64,000 bases of DNA from Bacillota bacterium (GTDB taxonomy: Bacteria; Bacillota; Dehalobacteriia; UBA4068). The position numbers were made by a program, and so were the translations under genes. The first letter of the stretch is position 1, and the number at the start of each line of letters is the position of its first letter. The stretch covers positions 8,904-72,903 of the forward strand of contig JAILCQ010000001.1 of NCBI GenBank assembly GCA_024679955.1. Direction: 5' to 3'. The notes under the pieces were generated by a model, which was given only the letters and a program-made list of their open reading frames with translations, was not told the origin of the DNA and ran no database searches. Of the stretch, positions 35,278 to 41,353 are shown piece by piece.

Positions 35278-35354
35278 GTCCCTGTAGCTCAGCAGGATAG
35301 AGCACATGCCTCCTAAGCATGGGGTCGGAGGTTCGAATCCTCTTAGGGACGCCA
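35278..35354 (+). tRNA. tRNA-Arg (anticodon CCT)
   Basis: GTCCCTGTAGCTCAGCAGGATAGAGCACATGCCTCCTAAGCATGGGGTCGGAGGTTCGAATCCTCTTAGGGACGCCA: cloverleaf with anticodon loop CTCCTAA and encoded CCA. Confidence 0.85.
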
Positions 35355-35394: not shown

Positions 35395-35577
35395 CATATC
35401 TTTCGCTAAACCGCTAAAAGCAGTCCCAGGTCGTTTTCAAGACTTCGCTGGAAACCGGTGATTCAGAAGCAAATCCACTATGTGGAAGTACGATTTATCC
35501 CGGCAAAGAGCTCCGTTATTCCGTACGCGTCCCGGGTATTTGCCTCGGCTGCTTTTTTATGAATCTCATCGACCAGG

Positions 35578-37518
35578 TCAAATCTCTTTCGCTACGGTGT
35601 AGGCCTTGTAGATCGCCCATTTTGCGTCTTTCACAGCTTCGGCGTCGCCGATCGTGTAAACCTCCGGCGCCAGTCCCTCGGTGGCGAATGGCAGATAAGG
35701 GCTGGAACCCAAGGCCAGAATCACATGGTCAAAGCCGTCAAGCACGATCTGTTCGCCATCGCACTCGGCTTTTACGCCGCCGGGGATGAACTCCAGCACC
35801 TTGGTGTTGGTGTGGATCTCCACTTCCTCATCCTTCAAACGGTCCAGCAAGGCGTTGCGAACGGTGAGATACAGGGTGGGAACGATCTGGGGCAGCATTT
35901 CGACGATGACGACCTTGGAGCAATAGTCGGTGGCATACTCCGCGGTCTCTGCGCCGACCTCGCCGCCGCCGATGATCAGGGCGGATTGCTTCAGCACAGG
36001 ATTGCCCAGCAGCACGTCGTTGGCAAGGACAACGCCGGTTTCCTGCAAGCCCTTGATGTTGGGCACGATGGGCTTGGCGCCGGTGGCCATGATCAGCACG
36101 TCGGGCTTCAGTTCGGCAATCCGTTCGGGGGTGGCTTCGGTGTTCCAGCGCAGGTCGACGCCATTTTTCTCGCACTGGTGGAGCATGTAACGGATCTCGC
36201 GGGTCAGAGGCTGCTTGAAGGGCGGGAAAGCGCCGATGCGAAGCTGACCGCCGGCAGCCAGCTTATCTTCCTTTTCCAGAAGGGTGACCTGGTGCCCTCT
36301 GTAGGCGCTCATCCAGGCAGCGGTCATGCCGGCGGGGCCCGCGCCGACCACGACGACCTTCTTGGGATCGTCGGTCAACTGCAGCATACGATCTGCTCTG
36401 TGGCTGGACTGTGGATTGTACATGCAGCCTACGCCCCAGTCTCCGGGCATCAGATTCTCGGGATAGTTGAACTCCATGCATCGCTGCGTGCAGCCGATGC
36501 AGGGGATAATGTCGTCCAGCGCGCCGCCGACGGCCTTATTGGGGAAGTCGGGGTCGGCAATGGATTGACGGCCAAGAGAAACGGCGTCGCAGTCGCCTCT
36601 CTTGATTGCGGTCTCAATGGTGTAGGGATCGTGGAACAGGCCCACGGAGAAAACCGGGATGTTGACGGCTTCCTTGATGCGGCGGCTATTCCCCAGATTC
36701 CAGCCGGACTGCCAGGCAGTGGGCGGTACGATGGTTTCCCAGGTCTCATACGTACCGGCAGAGATATGAAGGGCGTCGTAGCCGTATTCTTCAAGCATGG
36801 AGGCAAAGACGATGGTCTCCTCCATCTCCAGGCCGCCGATGCGGTTTTCAAAGGCGCTCAATCGGGTGGTGACAACGAAATCTTTGCCACAGGCGGCCTT
36901 GATGCCCTCAACGATCAGCTTCATAAAGTATGCCCTGCCGTCCAGGCCGCCGCCGAATTCGTCCACACGCTTGTTTGAGCGGGGGGACAGGAACTGTCCG
37001 CCCATGTAGCCGTGGGAGGCGTGTATCTCTACGCCGTCAAAGCCTGCTTTCTTCATGCGCACAGCGGCGTCCACATAGTGCTGGATCAAATCATAGACTT
37101 CCTGCGTGGTAAATTCTTTTGGCGTCTCGCGGTTGGTAGGGCAGGGAACGGAGGAGGGCGCCACCACTTTGCCCGCCATCAGGGAGACGGTCTCGCGGCC
37201 GGCGTGATGCAGCTGTACAATGGTCTTGGCTCCCTTTTCATGGATGACGCTGGCCAGCTTTGTCATGCCGGGAATGCAGTCGTCGGTCCAGCCGGCAGGC
37301 TCGCAGGGCATACCGACGCCGGTAGGCTCAACAGCGGTGATCTCGATGATGATCAGGCCGAACCCGCCTGCGGCACGGGCGCCGTAGTAGTCCAGCGTAG
37401 GCTGAATCACGAAGCCCTTCTGGTCAAATACGCCGGAATCCATTGCGGGAACGATGAGCCTGTTCTTGATTTCAAGGCTACCGATCTTGTAGGGAGAGAA
37501 CGTTTTTGAGAATGCCAT
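35578..37518 (-). CDS. Two-domain flavoprotein: OYE-type NADH:flavin oxidoreductase (TIM barrel) fused to an FAD/NAD(P)-binding pyridine-nucleotide-disulfide oxidoreductase domain (2,4-dienoyl-CoA-reductase/enoate-reductase-like)
   Basis: N-terminal OYE motifs (MAFSKTFSPYKIGSLEIKNRLIVPAM, HHAGR) and a C-terminal GAGPAGM Rossmann motif. GGAAGGAG RBS before the ATG at 37518 (minus strand). The longer ORF to 37626 is an over-extension. Confidence 0.85.
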   Translation of the reverse strand: MAFSKTFSPYKIGSLEIKNRLIVPAMDSGVFDQKGFVIQPTLDYYGARAAGGFGLIIIEITAVEPTGVGMPCEPAGWTDDCIPGMTKLASVIHEKGAKTIVQLHHAGRETVSLMAGKVVAPSSVPCPTNRETPKEFTTQEVYDLIQHYVDAAVRMKKAGFDGVEIHASHGYMGGQFLSPRSNKRVDEFGGGLDGRAYFMKLIVEGIKAACGKDFVVTTRLSAFENRIGGLEMEETIVFASMLEEYGYDALHISAGTYETWETIVPPTAWQSGWNLGNSRRIKEAVNIPVFSVGLFHDPYTIETAIKRGDCDAVSLGRQSIADPDFPNKAVGGALDDIIPCIGCTQRCMEFNYPENLMPGDWGVGCMYNPQSSHRADRMLQLTDDPKKVVVVGAGPAGMTAAWMSAYRGHQVTLLEKEDKLAAGGQLRIGAFPPFKQPLTREIRYMLHQCEKNGVDLRWNTEATPERIAELKPDVLIMATGAKPIVPNIKGLQETGVVLANDVLLGNPVLKQSALIIGGGEVGAETAEYATDYCSKVVIVEMLPQIVPTLYLTVRNALLDRLKDEEVEIHTNTKVLEFIPGGVKAECDGEQIVLDGFDHVILALGSSPYLPFATEGLAPEVYTIGDAEAVKDAKWAIYKAYTVAKEI

Positions 37519-37909
37519 ATGATACACTCCTTCCGAATATAGAATAGTACTGTGGGCGCCGCCCGCATTTCTGCCGAAGCAGCGCTCTGCTTCTTTCAAT
37601 ATAACATTTTGCATCCAAATAGTCAAACGCGGACGTTAGTGATGGGTTAGGAGACCAGCTTCCTTCGTTTATAAGCAGCATACGAATCCGTTCATTTCTG
37701 TGCCTCCGGCGGCGCAGACGCCTTCTTGTACTGCGAGCCTCCCTGCGCGGAGCCGCAAGTGAAGCACCGGATTTCGGCTGCTCAGCCGCGTCAAAGATGC
37801 GCGTTCCCATGCCGAGAATGCCGTAGGGATTGTCATCCTCATTCAGAGCGACCGTTGCCCATCCGACAGAAGTAATGCCAATATCCAATCCGATACCGTA
37901 CCGAAACAT
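37478..37909 (-). pseudogene. cas9: 5' remnant of a type II-C-like cas9 gene: RuvC-I motif plus Arg-rich bridge helix only
   Basis: Residues 1-~90 (MFRYGIGLDIGITSVGWATVALNEDDNPYGILGMGTRIFDAAEQPKSGASLAAPRREARSTRRRLRRRRHRNERIRMLLINEG) match the Cas9 N-terminus, with the catalytic Asp in GLDIG and the bridge helix. GGAGGAAGG RBS. Beyond roughly 37640 the frame reads through the oxidoreductase promoter and start with no Cas9 similarity. Confidence 0.7.
37598..37626 (-). promoter_or_regulatory. Sigma-A promoter of the flavin oxidoreductase gene (TTGACT-N17-TATATT)
   Basis: Minus strand reads ttgactatttggatgcaaaatgttatatt, followed by a GAAGCAG-agcg-CTGCTTC hairpin in the 5' UTR. Confidence 0.55.
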
Positions 37910-37914
37910 TTGCC

Positions 37915-38033
37915 TTCCTCCATTCTCCGTATAGAGATAACGCCTCGCAAAGGCGAGGCGTTTGGACTCTGCGGTTTACTACCTTGTTATAGTAACCTGC
38001 ATAGTTCTTGGTATGGTATAAAGAACTAACTAT
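37915..38033 (-). other. Structured leader / candidate small RNA between a sigma-A promoter and the cas9 stub, with three consecutive hairpins
   Basis: Minus-strand transcript carries hairpins AGUUCUU-N11-AAGAACU, GUUACUA-N8-UAGUAAC and CGCCUCGCC-UUU-GCGAGGCG, then UUAUCUCUAU. Function unknown. Confidence 0.3.
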
Positions 38034-38062
38034 TGTATATCAGTGTGGTCAATATATGTCAA
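38034..38062 (-). promoter_or_regulatory. Sigma-A promoter driving the cas9 remnant and its leader (TTGACA-N17-TATACA)
   Basis: Minus strand reads ttgacatatattgaccacactgatataca. Confidence 0.55.
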
Positions 38063-38149
38063 CGATTATCTCAATTTTCGGTCTTGGCAGCGTATTTCGG
38101 GCAAATTCTAATATAAACTATCCTATGAGATGCAGTCTTCCCATGACCT

Positions 38150-38989
38150 TTATATCCCCACATAGCCGGCGGCCGGGGTTTCTCCCAGGGGGACCAACCG
38201 TCCCACCACCGCATAGCGGGCGTTATCCCGTTCATAGGAGCAGGTGCAAAGCGTAATGATCTGATCGTCTGCCTGTATTTTCACATCGCTGGTAAAGGTG
38301 GAACGCTTCTTCAGATCGTCCAGATAGGTGAAAAAAGCTTCGTCGTTTTCGAATTGCAGGCGGAAGAATTGCCGGTCGCCGTTTTCCACGGTACCGCAGA
38401 TCAGCTCAATGCTGTAATCCTGCTCCGGGGTGGCCAGCAGCAAAGTGGGATTGGCTTCGTAAAACGCCTGATCCCTGTATCGGTCCAAACCGCCGAACAT
38501 GGTCCCGTTTTTCATATGATGCCCGTAGATCACCGTGTTTTTATCGGAAAAATCCCCGCTGCACCGATAGTCCATAAAAATCGCGCCGCTTTTGTTGTTT
38601 TCTCTATTATACATGTGGTCGAGATAGTAACTGTTGTCCTCCGCCCGCAGGATGGGGTAGTCAATATTGGCTCCGGCGCCTTTGATCCAGCCTACGATTT
38701 CCGGATTGATCTCCTGCAGGGCGGCAAAATCTATGGAAAAAAGGGCTTGCATTTCCGCGGAAGGCTTCTGCAAAGAGGGAATGGGCGTTTCCGTTTGTTC
38801 CTTTTGGGCGGCGGCGCTTTCCATTTCCGCTCTCAACTGCCGGTAGGCGTCGGCAGCCGCTTTGTTTTTTATGATATCGCTGAGCAGCATAAAGCCACTG
38901 AAGAGAAAGACGGCGCAAAACAGGCAAAAAAGCAGCAGCGCGCCAGGGCGAAGCCGGCGTTTGGCTTTTTTCATTTTTTTGCCGCTCAT
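38150..38989 (-). CDS. srtB: Class B sortase
   Basis: N-terminal TM anchor, catalytic His (TVIYGHHM) and TLCTCS active-site Cys motif, 280 aa. GGTGA RBS. The longer ORF to 39208 is an over-extension. Confidence 0.85.
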   Translation of the reverse strand: MSGKKMKKAKRRLRPGALLLFCLFCAVFLFSGFMLLSDIIKNKAAADAYRQLRAEMESAAAQKEQTETPIPSLQKPSAEMQALFSIDFAALQEINPEIVGWIKGAGANIDYPILRAEDNSYYLDHMYNRENNKSGAIFMDYRCSGDFSDKNTVIYGHHMKNGTMFGGLDRYRDQAFYEANPTLLLATPEQDYSIELICGTVENGDRQFFRLQFENDEAFFTYLDDLKKRSTFTSDVKIQADDQIITLCTCSYERDNARYAVVGRLVPLGETPAAGYVGI

Positions 38990-41141: not shown

Positions 41142-41255
41142 GATGCGCCCAATGCGGCGAACGGCGGCAACGGCGAATGCGTCGCAGACGCCAGATGCGG
41201 CGAACGGCGGCAACGGCGAATGCGTCGAAAATACCCGATGCGCCGGCAACCGCGG
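41142..41255. repeat. GC-rich imperfect direct repeats (~35-45-nt unit: GATGCG..GCGAACGGCGGCAACGGCGAATGCGTCG) in a noncoding tract
   Basis: Two near-identical copies and a third partial copy are visible. All six reading frames are low-complexity and lack a credible start/RBS. Confidence 0.7.
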
Positions 41256-41293
41256 ACATTCCGCATCCCAACCCCGATGGGGGAACAGAAGCG

Positions 41294-41353
41294 GAACCAG
41301 AGCAGGAACCAGAGCAGGAACCAGAGCAGGAACCAGAGCAGGAAGCAGGGCAT
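41294..41353. repeat. 12-nt tandem repeat (GAACCAGAGCAG x4 plus one degenerate copy)
   Basis: gaaccagagcag repeated four times, then gaagcagggcat. Confidence 0.85.

Follow-up and report, generated by a model that had tools for sequence, protein, structure and literature searches.

Remnant of a type II-C CRISPR-Cas locus in a Bacillota genome: the 5′ end of cas9 and its upstream tracrRNA gene beside a flavin oxidoreductase gene

The segment 37660–38062 on the minus strand of the window (the whole analysed stretch of DNA, 64,000 nucleotides) is very probably what remains of a type II-C CRISPR-Cas locus at its 5′ end, a young relic whose body was lost by rearrangement. This reading is carried by the identity of a cas9 fragment and of a tracrRNA gene, by a sharp breakpoint, by the lack of any further part of the locus in the window and by a foreign oxidoreductase gene. 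The region includes the following features:

35278–35354, plus strand: tRNA-Arg(CCU), found by ARAGORN and Rfam; convergent with the cassette, far boundary of the rearranged interval
35553–37535, minus strand: flavin oxidoreductase cassette (CDS 35578–37518, 646 aa)
37478–37659, minus strand: tail of the stub ORF, residues ~85–143, not demonstrably cas9
37598–37626, minus strand: promoter-like site, TG-extended TTGACT-N17-TATATT; the oxidoreductase ATG follows ~80 nt downstream
37660–37909, minus strand: 5′ fragment of cas9, ~84 codons, with the RuvC-I motif GLDIGITSVGW (catalytic Asp9) and the Arg-rich bridge helix
37917–37921, minus strand: GGAGG ribosome-binding site, 7 nt 5′ of the cas9 ATG (37909)
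37927–38031, minus strand: orphan tracrRNA gene (covariance model R1, 105 of 105 positions)
38028–38021 and 38009–38002, minus strand: 5′ hairpin of the tracrRNA, TAGTTCTT / AAGAACTA, 8 bp, perfect
~38020–37986, minus strand: anti-repeat of the tracrRNA, matching the repeats of locus L001
37985–37973, minus strand: nexus-like stem of the tracrRNA, AAGGTAGTAAACC
37970–37933, minus strand: extended 3′ hairpin of the tracrRNA, then AU ACGG
38034–38062, minus strand: tracrRNA promoter, TTGACA (38062–38057), 17-nt spacer and TG-extended TATACA (38039–38034)
38150–38989, minus strand: class B sortase gene (PF04203), upstream neighbour of the relic

The stub ORF (37478–37909, minus strand) encodes 143 aa, as the preliminary description had it, and the profile search with its product gave a significant Cas9 match. 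Residues 4–90 aligned with positions 1–80 of the 1070-position NCBIfam model TIGR01865 (E = 9e-27); the score of 93.7 bits lies below the whole-protein cut-off of 100 bits since the stub spans only 8% of the model. As in the N-terminal part of this family (cas_Csn1), RuvC-I with its catalytic Asp is followed by the Arg-rich bridge helix. Among solved structures, residues 3–86 also match the N-termini of Cas9 chains 1082–1154 aa long (E from 1e-21 to 1e-23; 2e-12 for PDB chain 5x2g), so that the RuvC-I motif and bridge helix of a type II-C-like cas9 named earlier are borne out by both TIGR01865 and the solved type II-C Cas9s (E ~1e-23). A Cas9 family HMM gave 153.6 bits. A Pfam search of the stub ORF returned no match, and the exact stub product had no record in the contig index.

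The Cas9 homology breaks off sharply at about codon 84 (~37660). An nhmmer DNA profile built on 33 cas9 genes of the family (211.9 bits) aligned from the ATG to ~37648, with the envelope ending at 37628, and tblastn with six full-length family Cas9s matched only residues 1–~110 in the 64 kb, at 37909–37574. Decayed cas9 sequence up to codon ~112, as far as tblastn and MAFFT reached, was considered and rejected: the DNA profile stops earlier, and tail residues 83–114 taken alone were not significantly Cas9-like against the family HMM, an equal score being reached in 18 of 200 shuffles. The end of similarity "after about 90 residues" described before is indeed sharp, with ~84 as the closer value. 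The last ~60 residues of the ORF are read-through of non-cas9 sequence, and the frame overruns the promoter-like site, the RBS and the start of the oxidoreductase gene, in line with the earlier account. HNH, RuvC-II/III, the recognition lobe and the PAM-interacting domain, which belong to Cas9 as one protein of ~1000–1400 aa, were not found in the 64 kb. The segment 37660–37909 is a cas9 gene fragment, not a Cas9. All family-invariant residues are retained in residues 1–82. Because none of the 69 family-invariant nucleotides in nt 1–246 is altered, the relic appears to be young.

The "structured leader with three hairpins" of the preliminary description does fold into three hairpins (MFE −40.4 kcal/mol, z = −4.8); its identity is that of a tracrRNA gene. 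The interval 37927–38031 matched R1, a covariance model of 37 related loci that leaves out the window, over model positions 1–105 of 105 with 107.2 bits (E = 1.6e-21), family members scoring 89–122 bits. Judged by this match, the lost locus had its tracrRNA gene here, and the leader did not arise as an mRNA leader for the stub. In about 90 metagenomic loci, a copy of this RNA precedes cas9 by 48–160 nt. A 20-base tracr motif led to 100 metagenome loci, in nearly all of which cas9 comes next on the same strand, and 44 of them hold full cas9 ORFs (1084–1116 aa). The conserved position and the secondary structure 3′ of the anti-repeat, as expected for a tracrRNA, are thus both found, the first in these about 90 loci and the second by RNAalifold (24 pairs on the family tracrRNA, 10 with compensatory changes) and the covariance model. 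In the conserved, covarying 5′ hairpin, a repeat-like segment of 7–9 nt is folded onto the anti-repeat. As for a cognate repeat, there is no array in the window, and the repeats of homologous loci match the anti-repeat or co-vary with it. L001, with a near-identical tracrRNA sequence upstream of cas9, has an array of seven repeats whose complement is identical to the window anti-repeat over 20 nt; in L067, anti-repeat and repeat have changed in concert. The Rfam scan showed only two tRNAs above the gathering threshold in the window and nothing relevant at E ≤ 10 in 37400–38400.

Downstream of the tracrRNA, the GGAGG site occupies 37921–37917 and not 37909, the position first given for it, which is the ATG. 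The arrangement of 3′ hairpin, ~25 nt, GAGGAGG and ATG is shared by L119 and L158. It was correctly noted before that a good RBS and a promoter-like site are still present 5′ of the stub. Loss of a separate cas9 promoter between tracrRNA and cas9, considered from the comparison with L001, was dropped; many intact loci share the ~25-nt spacing.

The promoter of the window tracrRNA is the positional equivalent of TTGACA/TTGCAA-N16–17-TATAAT/TATACT upstream of 66 family tracrRNAs. The −10 box ends in T in 63 of these 66 and in A in the window, and it was because of the missing T that the consensus scanner did not call TATACA. The orphan tracrRNA locus L163 likewise has a −10 box without the final T. 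For an overlapping TACAAT (38037–38032), the spacer would be 19 nt. The sigma-A promoter TTGACA-N17-TATACA described earlier is therefore present at 38062–38034 and serves the tracrRNA, but "intact" is too strong a word for it. In the tracrRNA itself, an invariant loop C is replaced by T at 37966, and an A·A mismatch (37963/37938) stands where the family has U-A or C-G. With one invariant base, one stem pair and the final T of the −10 box lost, the tracrRNA seems to show its first decay. It should be noted that near-absence of decay would fit purifying selection on the relic too.

Across the 64-kb window, tblastn and repeat searches found no second cas9 piece, no cas1, no cas2 and no CRISPR repeat, which confirms the absence of cas1, cas2, an HNH domain and a CRISPR array stated in the preliminary description. 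Degenerate repeats near the tRNA or anywhere in the window were none better than in shuffled sequence. Of the set that makes up a type II-C locus (cas9, cas1, cas2 and an array, with neither csn2 nor cas4), the window thus holds a remnant, not a locus.

The DNA homology of the oxidoreductase cassette is limited to 37535–35553 in 32 of 32 loci. Relatives of the protein with 77–93% aa identity occur in MAGs of unrelated gut Firmicutes (Solobacterium/Erysipelotrichaceae, Oscillospiraceae and Lachnospiraceae). In tetranucleotide usage, the cassette correlates with the remainder of the window at 0.66, compared with 0.878 ± 0.026 (minimum 0.795) for 59 same-size windows, and its GC content is 59% versus 54%. 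Based on sequence comparison and composition, the oxidoreductase gene is horizontally acquired, foreign DNA. None of the flanks of 63 loci found via the oxidoreductase was common with the window, the upstream regions of other oxidoreductase loci were unrelated to that of the window, and a search of PLSDB for a plasmid origin of the cassette gave no relevant match. The junction segment 37536–37659 had no match in 174 fetched loci or in the rest of the window. The promoter-like site within it is the sole sigma-70-type consensus match in 37300–38300 (10/12) and is treated as a candidate only, because chance gives 1.3 such matches in 1 kb. Its derivation from cas9 codons was also considered and dropped, the cas9 homology not extending there. 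A bidirectional terminator hairpin lies between tRNA-Arg(CCU) and the oxidoreductase gene. At the other end, the NCBI protein identical to the window sortase bears the name "class B sortase". The nearest other sortase B among 5.8 billion proteins is 59% identical, and in the loci of sortase B relatives srtB is followed by TIR and HATPase genes or by unrelated genes.

We suggest the following pathway for the origin of the relic. The ancestral order, presumably at this exact site, would have been promoter, tracrRNA, cas9 (~1090 aa), cas1 and cas2, followed by a CRISPR array with antisense transcription. Everything beyond cas9 codon ~84, at least 4.5 kb, would have been lost in a rearrangement, leaving downstream of the stub the ~120 bp of the unmatched junction segment and then the acquired oxidoreductase gene. 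The most economical route would be a single illegitimate-recombination event, with incoming DNA replacing the locus body; that one event made both the deletion and the insertion is presumed, and it is indistinguishable from several. The locus body was probably replaced and not simply deleted, because the oxidoreductase gene is a compositional outlier with gene-confined homology in unrelated gut Firmicutes. In the preliminary description, a type II locus had been deleted here and left a scar with the 5′ stub of a type II-C-like cas9, which agrees with the cas9 and tracrRNA homology and with the lack of any remainder in the window; what stands of the proposed deletion is the loss of the locus, a simple deletion between two resident genes being less likely than replacement given the foreign oxidoreductase. 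Partial losses of the same locus type are found elsewhere. Between L165 and L126, 99% identical, a 2.8-kb deletion removed the 3′ end of cas9, cas1, cas2 and the array, and further, independent partial deletions occur in other gut bacteria (L117, L142, L155 and L163). The weakened tracrRNA promoter may still drive transcription of the relic, some of which would run on into the stub ORF, since intact relatives leave no space for a cas9 promoter of its own. Neither the tracrRNA nor the 143-aa peptide is expected to function without Cas9 and crRNAs. The relic is thus taken to be a non-functional remnant of a known system, an ordinary gene remnant and not a new system.

It is highly improbable that the contig is a chimera joined at or near 37540–37660, with an intact cas9 in the real genome. 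The source is a MAG, the oxidoreductase gene has relatives of 70–85% nucleotide identity in co-resident gut bacteria, and the junction segment lacks a matching source in the 174 loci and the window. However, the tetranucleotide correlation across the junction (r 0.88–0.97) equals the within-side values, which places both flanks in one genome; moreover, such joins form inside shared sequence, whereas the break here lies ~120 bp outside the shared gene, and comparable truncations are found in independent assemblies. As for the 143-aa Arg-rich peptide (RuvC-I strand and bridge helix), a role as a functional small protein, for example an RNA-binding decoy, is extremely improbable. The good RBS, the intact ATG and the invariant residues kept in residues 1–82 would suit it, but an isolated RuvC-I strand cannot make the RuvC fold, the C-terminal 60 residues are accidental read-through, and true stubs end variously (68, 145 and 249 aa), so there is no conserved product. 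Other short "stubs" on long contigs are frameshifted full-length genes. Among them, a recurrent stub protein of ~82 aa (P0061, P0098 and P0086; 82–127 aa, ending after the bridge helix) was rejected as a candidate, being due to one-base frameshifts in an otherwise complete cas9 followed by cas1 and cas2.

The remaining alternatives give the relic a new task. It is unlikely, and compatible with loss of the locus body rather than opposed to it, that the relic is retained to serve the acquired oxidoreductase gene, which would have arrived without a promoter and be driven by that of the tracrRNA, with its leader, or by the promoter-like site of the stub tail. The cassette homology starts only at the RBS (37535) in 32 loci, with no recognisable donor promoter; a good TTGACT-N17-TGnTATATT lies inside the stub ORF at 37626–37598; all elements are co-oriented, and the 3′ hairpin of the tracrRNA has a poor U-tract. 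Against this, one promoter-like match in 1 kb is at chance level (1.3 expected), the sequence 37536–37659 may stem from an unsampled donor, and the tracrRNA −10 box is weakened. A functional orphan tracrRNA, pairing with the crRNAs of another type II-C locus in the genome (repeat sought: ~GTTATAGTTCCCTGATAGTTCTTGGTATGGTATAA) or acting as a regulatory small RNA, is very unlikely. The full-length model match lies within the family score range, and the three stems are kept, including the perfect 8-bp 5′ hairpin, but recent loss would give the same conservation, an invariant loop base is altered, a conserved stem pair is broken, the −10 T is lost as in the other orphan (L163), and no repeat or cas9 is present in the 64 kb. 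That the module of promoter, structured RNA and leaky 3′ hairpin has been co-opted, whether as an expression platform for the oxidoreductase gene or as a regulatory small RNA independent of Cas9, seems quite unlikely; if true, its near-perfect conservation would be due to selection and not to youth, and it would document a CRISPR RNA gene outliving its system via a new role.

The remnant alone matters little. Read as a young relic, it provides a clean, datable example of CRISPR-Cas loss in gut bacteria, with a truncated cas9 and foreign DNA in place of the immune locus. The analysis also defines a well-populated type II-C subfamily with Cas9s of ~1090 aa, useful for annotation and for Cas9 tool mining. 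In this subfamily, the tracrRNA forms the co-oriented 5′ leader of cas9 with a covarying 5′ fold-back, an RNA recognised by no Rfam model. The case also shows that a "structured leader" before a cas9 start codon is worth testing as a tracrRNA.

The intact relatives consist of exactly cas9-cas1-cas2-array, with no space for another gene. Their repeat is 36 nt long and starts with GTTATAG, the array is antisense to the cas genes, and the end of each repeat is TGGTATAAT, an extended −10 box similar to the crRNA promoters inside the repeats of Neisseria and Campylobacter. Compared with the type II-C loci of N. meningitidis, C. jejuni and Geobacillus, the stub aligns best with solved Cas9s of 1082–1154 aa; PDB 6jdq we take to be the Cas9 of N. 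meningitidis, 5x2g that of C. jejuni and the 1087-aa chains that of Geobacillus. Unlike these loci, the window keeps only ~8% of cas9; missing are cas1, cas2, the array and, within Cas9, HNH, RuvC-II/III and the domains for recognition and PAM interaction.

The long-form tracrRNA of S. pyogenes reportedly acts as a natural single guide. In both RNAs, a 5′ tracrRNA segment pairs with its own anti-repeat, a likeness that is a lead only; unlike in S. pyogenes, the fold-back in the window comprises just 7–9 bp at the 5′ end and has no guide-like extension. Array orientation is stated in Chylinski et al. (2013, PMC3737331), where a place upstream of cas9 is among four typical positions for tracrRNA genes. 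Like upstream tracrRNA genes, that of the window has an anti-repeat, a nexus-like stem and a terminal hairpin directly 5′ of cas9. Unlike typical ones, the subfamily tracrRNA has the orientation of cas9, with only ~25 nt between its end and the start codon, so that it resembles a 5′ leader of the cas9 transcript; it also has a conserved covarying 5′ hairpin and matches no Rfam family. Like degenerate CRISPR-Cas loci with cas pseudogenes (cf. L117, L142, L155, L163 and L165), the relic consists of non-functional pieces after a partial deletion. Unlike them, it keeps a nearly intact tracrRNA, and a metabolic gene of foreign composition stands in place of the lost part.

The preliminary description had read the ORF between the flavin oxidoreductase and sortase B genes as the 5' end of a type II-C-like cas9. 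The following features lie at this site:
38062-38034, minus strand, promoter TTGACA-N17-TATACA, read from the sequence
37921-37917, minus strand, RBS GGAGG, 7 nt before the cas9 ATG
37478-37909, minus strand, stub ORF of 143 aa, which opens with MFRYGIGLDIGITSVGWA followed by an Arg-rich segment
35578-37518, minus strand, flavin oxidoreductase CDS of 646 aa, immediately downstream of the relic

The first 80 of the 1070 positions of TIGR01865, the NCBIfam Cas9 model, matched stub residues 4-90 (E=9e-27), and residues 3-86 matched solved Cas9 chains of 1082-1154 aa (E 1e-21 to 1e-23; structure 5x2g, E 2e-12). Therefore, both the Cas9 identification and the proposed likeness to small type II-C Cas9s stand. 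The Pfam search of the stub gave no match, and Pfam has no model for the Cas9 N-terminal part. All 120 stub relatives among the matches listed (P0002-P0120) were of at most 250 aa, and the entries checked were contig-end fragments or frameshifted cas9 genes. The lack of full-length Cas9s among the matches listed is probably an effect of candidate collection for a short query. Short database matches were also considered as stubs ending after the bridge helix; this was rejected, as they are frameshifted full-length genes.

In the DNA-profile alignment (33 related cas9 genes), homology runs from the ATG to ~37648. Past cas9 nt ~250 the alignment of the window to the family cas9 collapses, and residues 83-114 alone scored no better against the family than 18 of 200 shuffles. 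These results place a sharp break of cas9 homology at codon ~84 (window ~37660), and the last 60 residues of the stub ORF are accidental read-through.

The RNA between the promoter and the RBS folds well beyond chance (z=-4.8). The structured leader described earlier is re-identified here as an orphan tracrRNA gene. A 120-kb metagenome contig (L001) contains a complete but frameshifted cas9, and after it comes an array whose repeat, on the cas9 strand, is ATTATACCATACCAAGAACTATCAGGGAACTATAAC. Upstream of this cas9 lies a near-identical counterpart of the window leader; common to both are TATACCATACCAAGAACTAT, then AGGTTACTA..AAGG..TAGTA.ACC and then a GC-rich hairpin. The other strand of this repeat reads GTTATAGTT...TGGTATAAT, which is the customary orientation of a type II repeat, and therefore the upstream element is an anti-repeat on the cas9 strand. 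Its order of anti-repeat, nexus-like stem and terminal hairpin identifies the element as a tracrRNA. In the locus L067, the anti-repeat and repeat have changed together, since both read ...CCATATCTTGAATCAT....

A scan of metagenome contigs with the 20-base core AGGTTACTANNAYAAGGN{0,2}TAGTA gave 100 loci; in nearly all of those with enough sequence a same-strand cas9 starts 48-160 nt after the core, and 44 have complete cas9 ORFs of 1084-1116 aa. Directly after cas9, this family contains cas1, cas2 and the array, which is the type II-C gene set. Chylinski et al. 2013 (PMC3737331) describe both an upstream tracrRNA position and arrays that run antisense to the cas genes. RNAalifold predicted 24 pairs for 37 distinct family members, 10 of them with compensatory changes, including the closing AGAG/CUCU stem of the 3' hairpin (GC in 27, AU in 9). 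The same 37 members, with the window left out, served to build a covariance model, which gave a single match in the window at 37927-38031, minus strand (107.2 bits, E=1.6e-21, 105/105 positions); the members themselves score 89-122 bits. The core-to-ATG (89 nt) and hairpin-to-ATG (~25 nt) distances in the window are the family norm. The tracrRNA of this subfamily amounts to a 5' leader of cas9, and a cas9 promoter of its own would not fit.

The family (window 38002-38028, minus strand; loci L075-L174) also has a conserved hairpin at the tracrRNA 5' end, in which a repeat-like segment of 7-9 nt base-pairs with the central part of the anti-repeat around a loop of ~10 nt, (U)AUACCAUACC. It has many compensatory variants: AGTTCTT/AAGAACT, AATCCTT/AAGGATT, GTCCTT/AAGGAC, CGTTCTT/AAGAACG, TGTCCT/AGGACA and ATTAC/GTAAT. 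Candidate roles would be competition with crRNA pairing or protection of the 5' end.

Full-length family Cas9, Cas1 and Cas2 queries matched nothing in the 64 kb besides the stub. The 64-kb window contains no tandem CRISPR array, and no copy of the family repeat scored above shuffled sequence, the anti-repeat excepted. The window tracrRNA is almost intact, with three deviations counted. The promoter is where it had been proposed, but its -10 box is TATACA, without the T that ends this box in 63 of the 66 family promoters; a second hexamer, TACAAT, overlaps it at a spacing of 19 nt and might be a partial substitute. The invariant C of AGAGCUCU is a T at 37966, and the pair 37963/37938 is A.A, where 34 members of the family have U-A and 3 have C-G. 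None of the 69 family-invariant nucleotide columns in cas9 nt 1-246 is altered. Taken together, these counts point to a recent loss of the locus, with decay just beginning. It is very improbable that the tracrRNA module has been co-opted.

The oxidoreductase relatives (77-93% aa identity) come from MAGs labelled Solobacterium/Erysipelotrichaceae, Oscillospiraceae, Lachnospiraceae and others; the best is L031, from a goat-jejunum Clostridia MAG (93% aa, 85% nt). DNA homology with every relative locus is limited to 37535-35553, reaching from the RBS to a point 25 bp beyond the stop. These loci and the window share no flanks, nor does an integrase or transposase lie next to the gene. It has the appearance of a single-gene cassette that passes between families of rumen and gut Firmicutes. 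Its tetranucleotide correlation with the rest of the window is 0.66, compared with 0.878±0.026 (minimum 0.795) for 59 same-size windows. The spread of the relatives, the gene-confined homology and this outlying signature mark it, by composition and comparison, as a foreign cassette.

The two flanks correlate at r 0.88-0.97, the same as within each flank, which argues against a chimeric contig. The loss of the CRISPR locus is tied to the acquisition of foreign DNA, which would have replaced the locus body in a single event. The locus may instead have been lost or replaced in several steps. Between the cassette boundary and the cas9 breakpoint lie ~120 bp that matched none of the available sequences and include a promoter-like site, TTGACT-N17-TATATT.

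Other loci of the same type are degraded as well:
L117, 1313-2241, tracrRNA, 145-aa cas9 stub and cas2; cas1 and most of cas9 deleted
L142, 249-aa cas9 stub, then unrelated ORFs
L155, in-frame fusion of a 68-aa cas9 stub with unrelated sequence
L163, 4924-5028, orphan tracrRNA, no cas9; -10 box TATATC, final T also lost, and the same invariant C to T change as the window

There is no conserved stub protein, since the endpoints of the stubs differ. L165 and its copies match L126 at 99% identity but lack 2.8 kb, comprising the cas9 3' end, cas1, cas2 and the array. At least five contigs of this lineage (L165, L119, L146, L154, L159) have an open 933-aa cas9 without the C-terminal ~160 residues and an intact tracrRNA; cas1, cas2 and the array are absent. 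Comparison with L126 shows that one 2.8-kb deletion produced this lineage. The sub-lineage of L001, L081 and L107 keeps cas9 and, ~3.5 kb after the tracrRNA, an array of 5-7 repeats; its adaptation module is degenerate, as cas1 is missing and cas2 is a ~41-aa fragment.

No close relative of the source genome was found in the collections, and hence the ancestral arrangement at the site is inferred from the family rather than observed. In the nearest sortase B relatives (55% identity; L071/L072:10849-16072), genes for TIR-domain and HD/HATPase_c_3 proteins lie downstream of srtB, which suggests that the site is rich in defence genes and varies within this lineage. Elsewhere in the window, 41148-41352 contains two adjoining tandem repeats (43 bp x 2.2 and 12 bp x 5) with no obvious gene.

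The relic is real, but it is an ordinary one, left by a known system. In L001 (13496-13932, plus strand) and related arrays, the last bases of the 36-nt repeat in the crRNA sense are TGGTATAAT and form a perfect extended -10 box, which suggests repeat-internal crRNA promoters and array transcription antisense to cas9. Such promoters and antisense arrays occur in the type II-C systems of Neisseria and Campylobacter.
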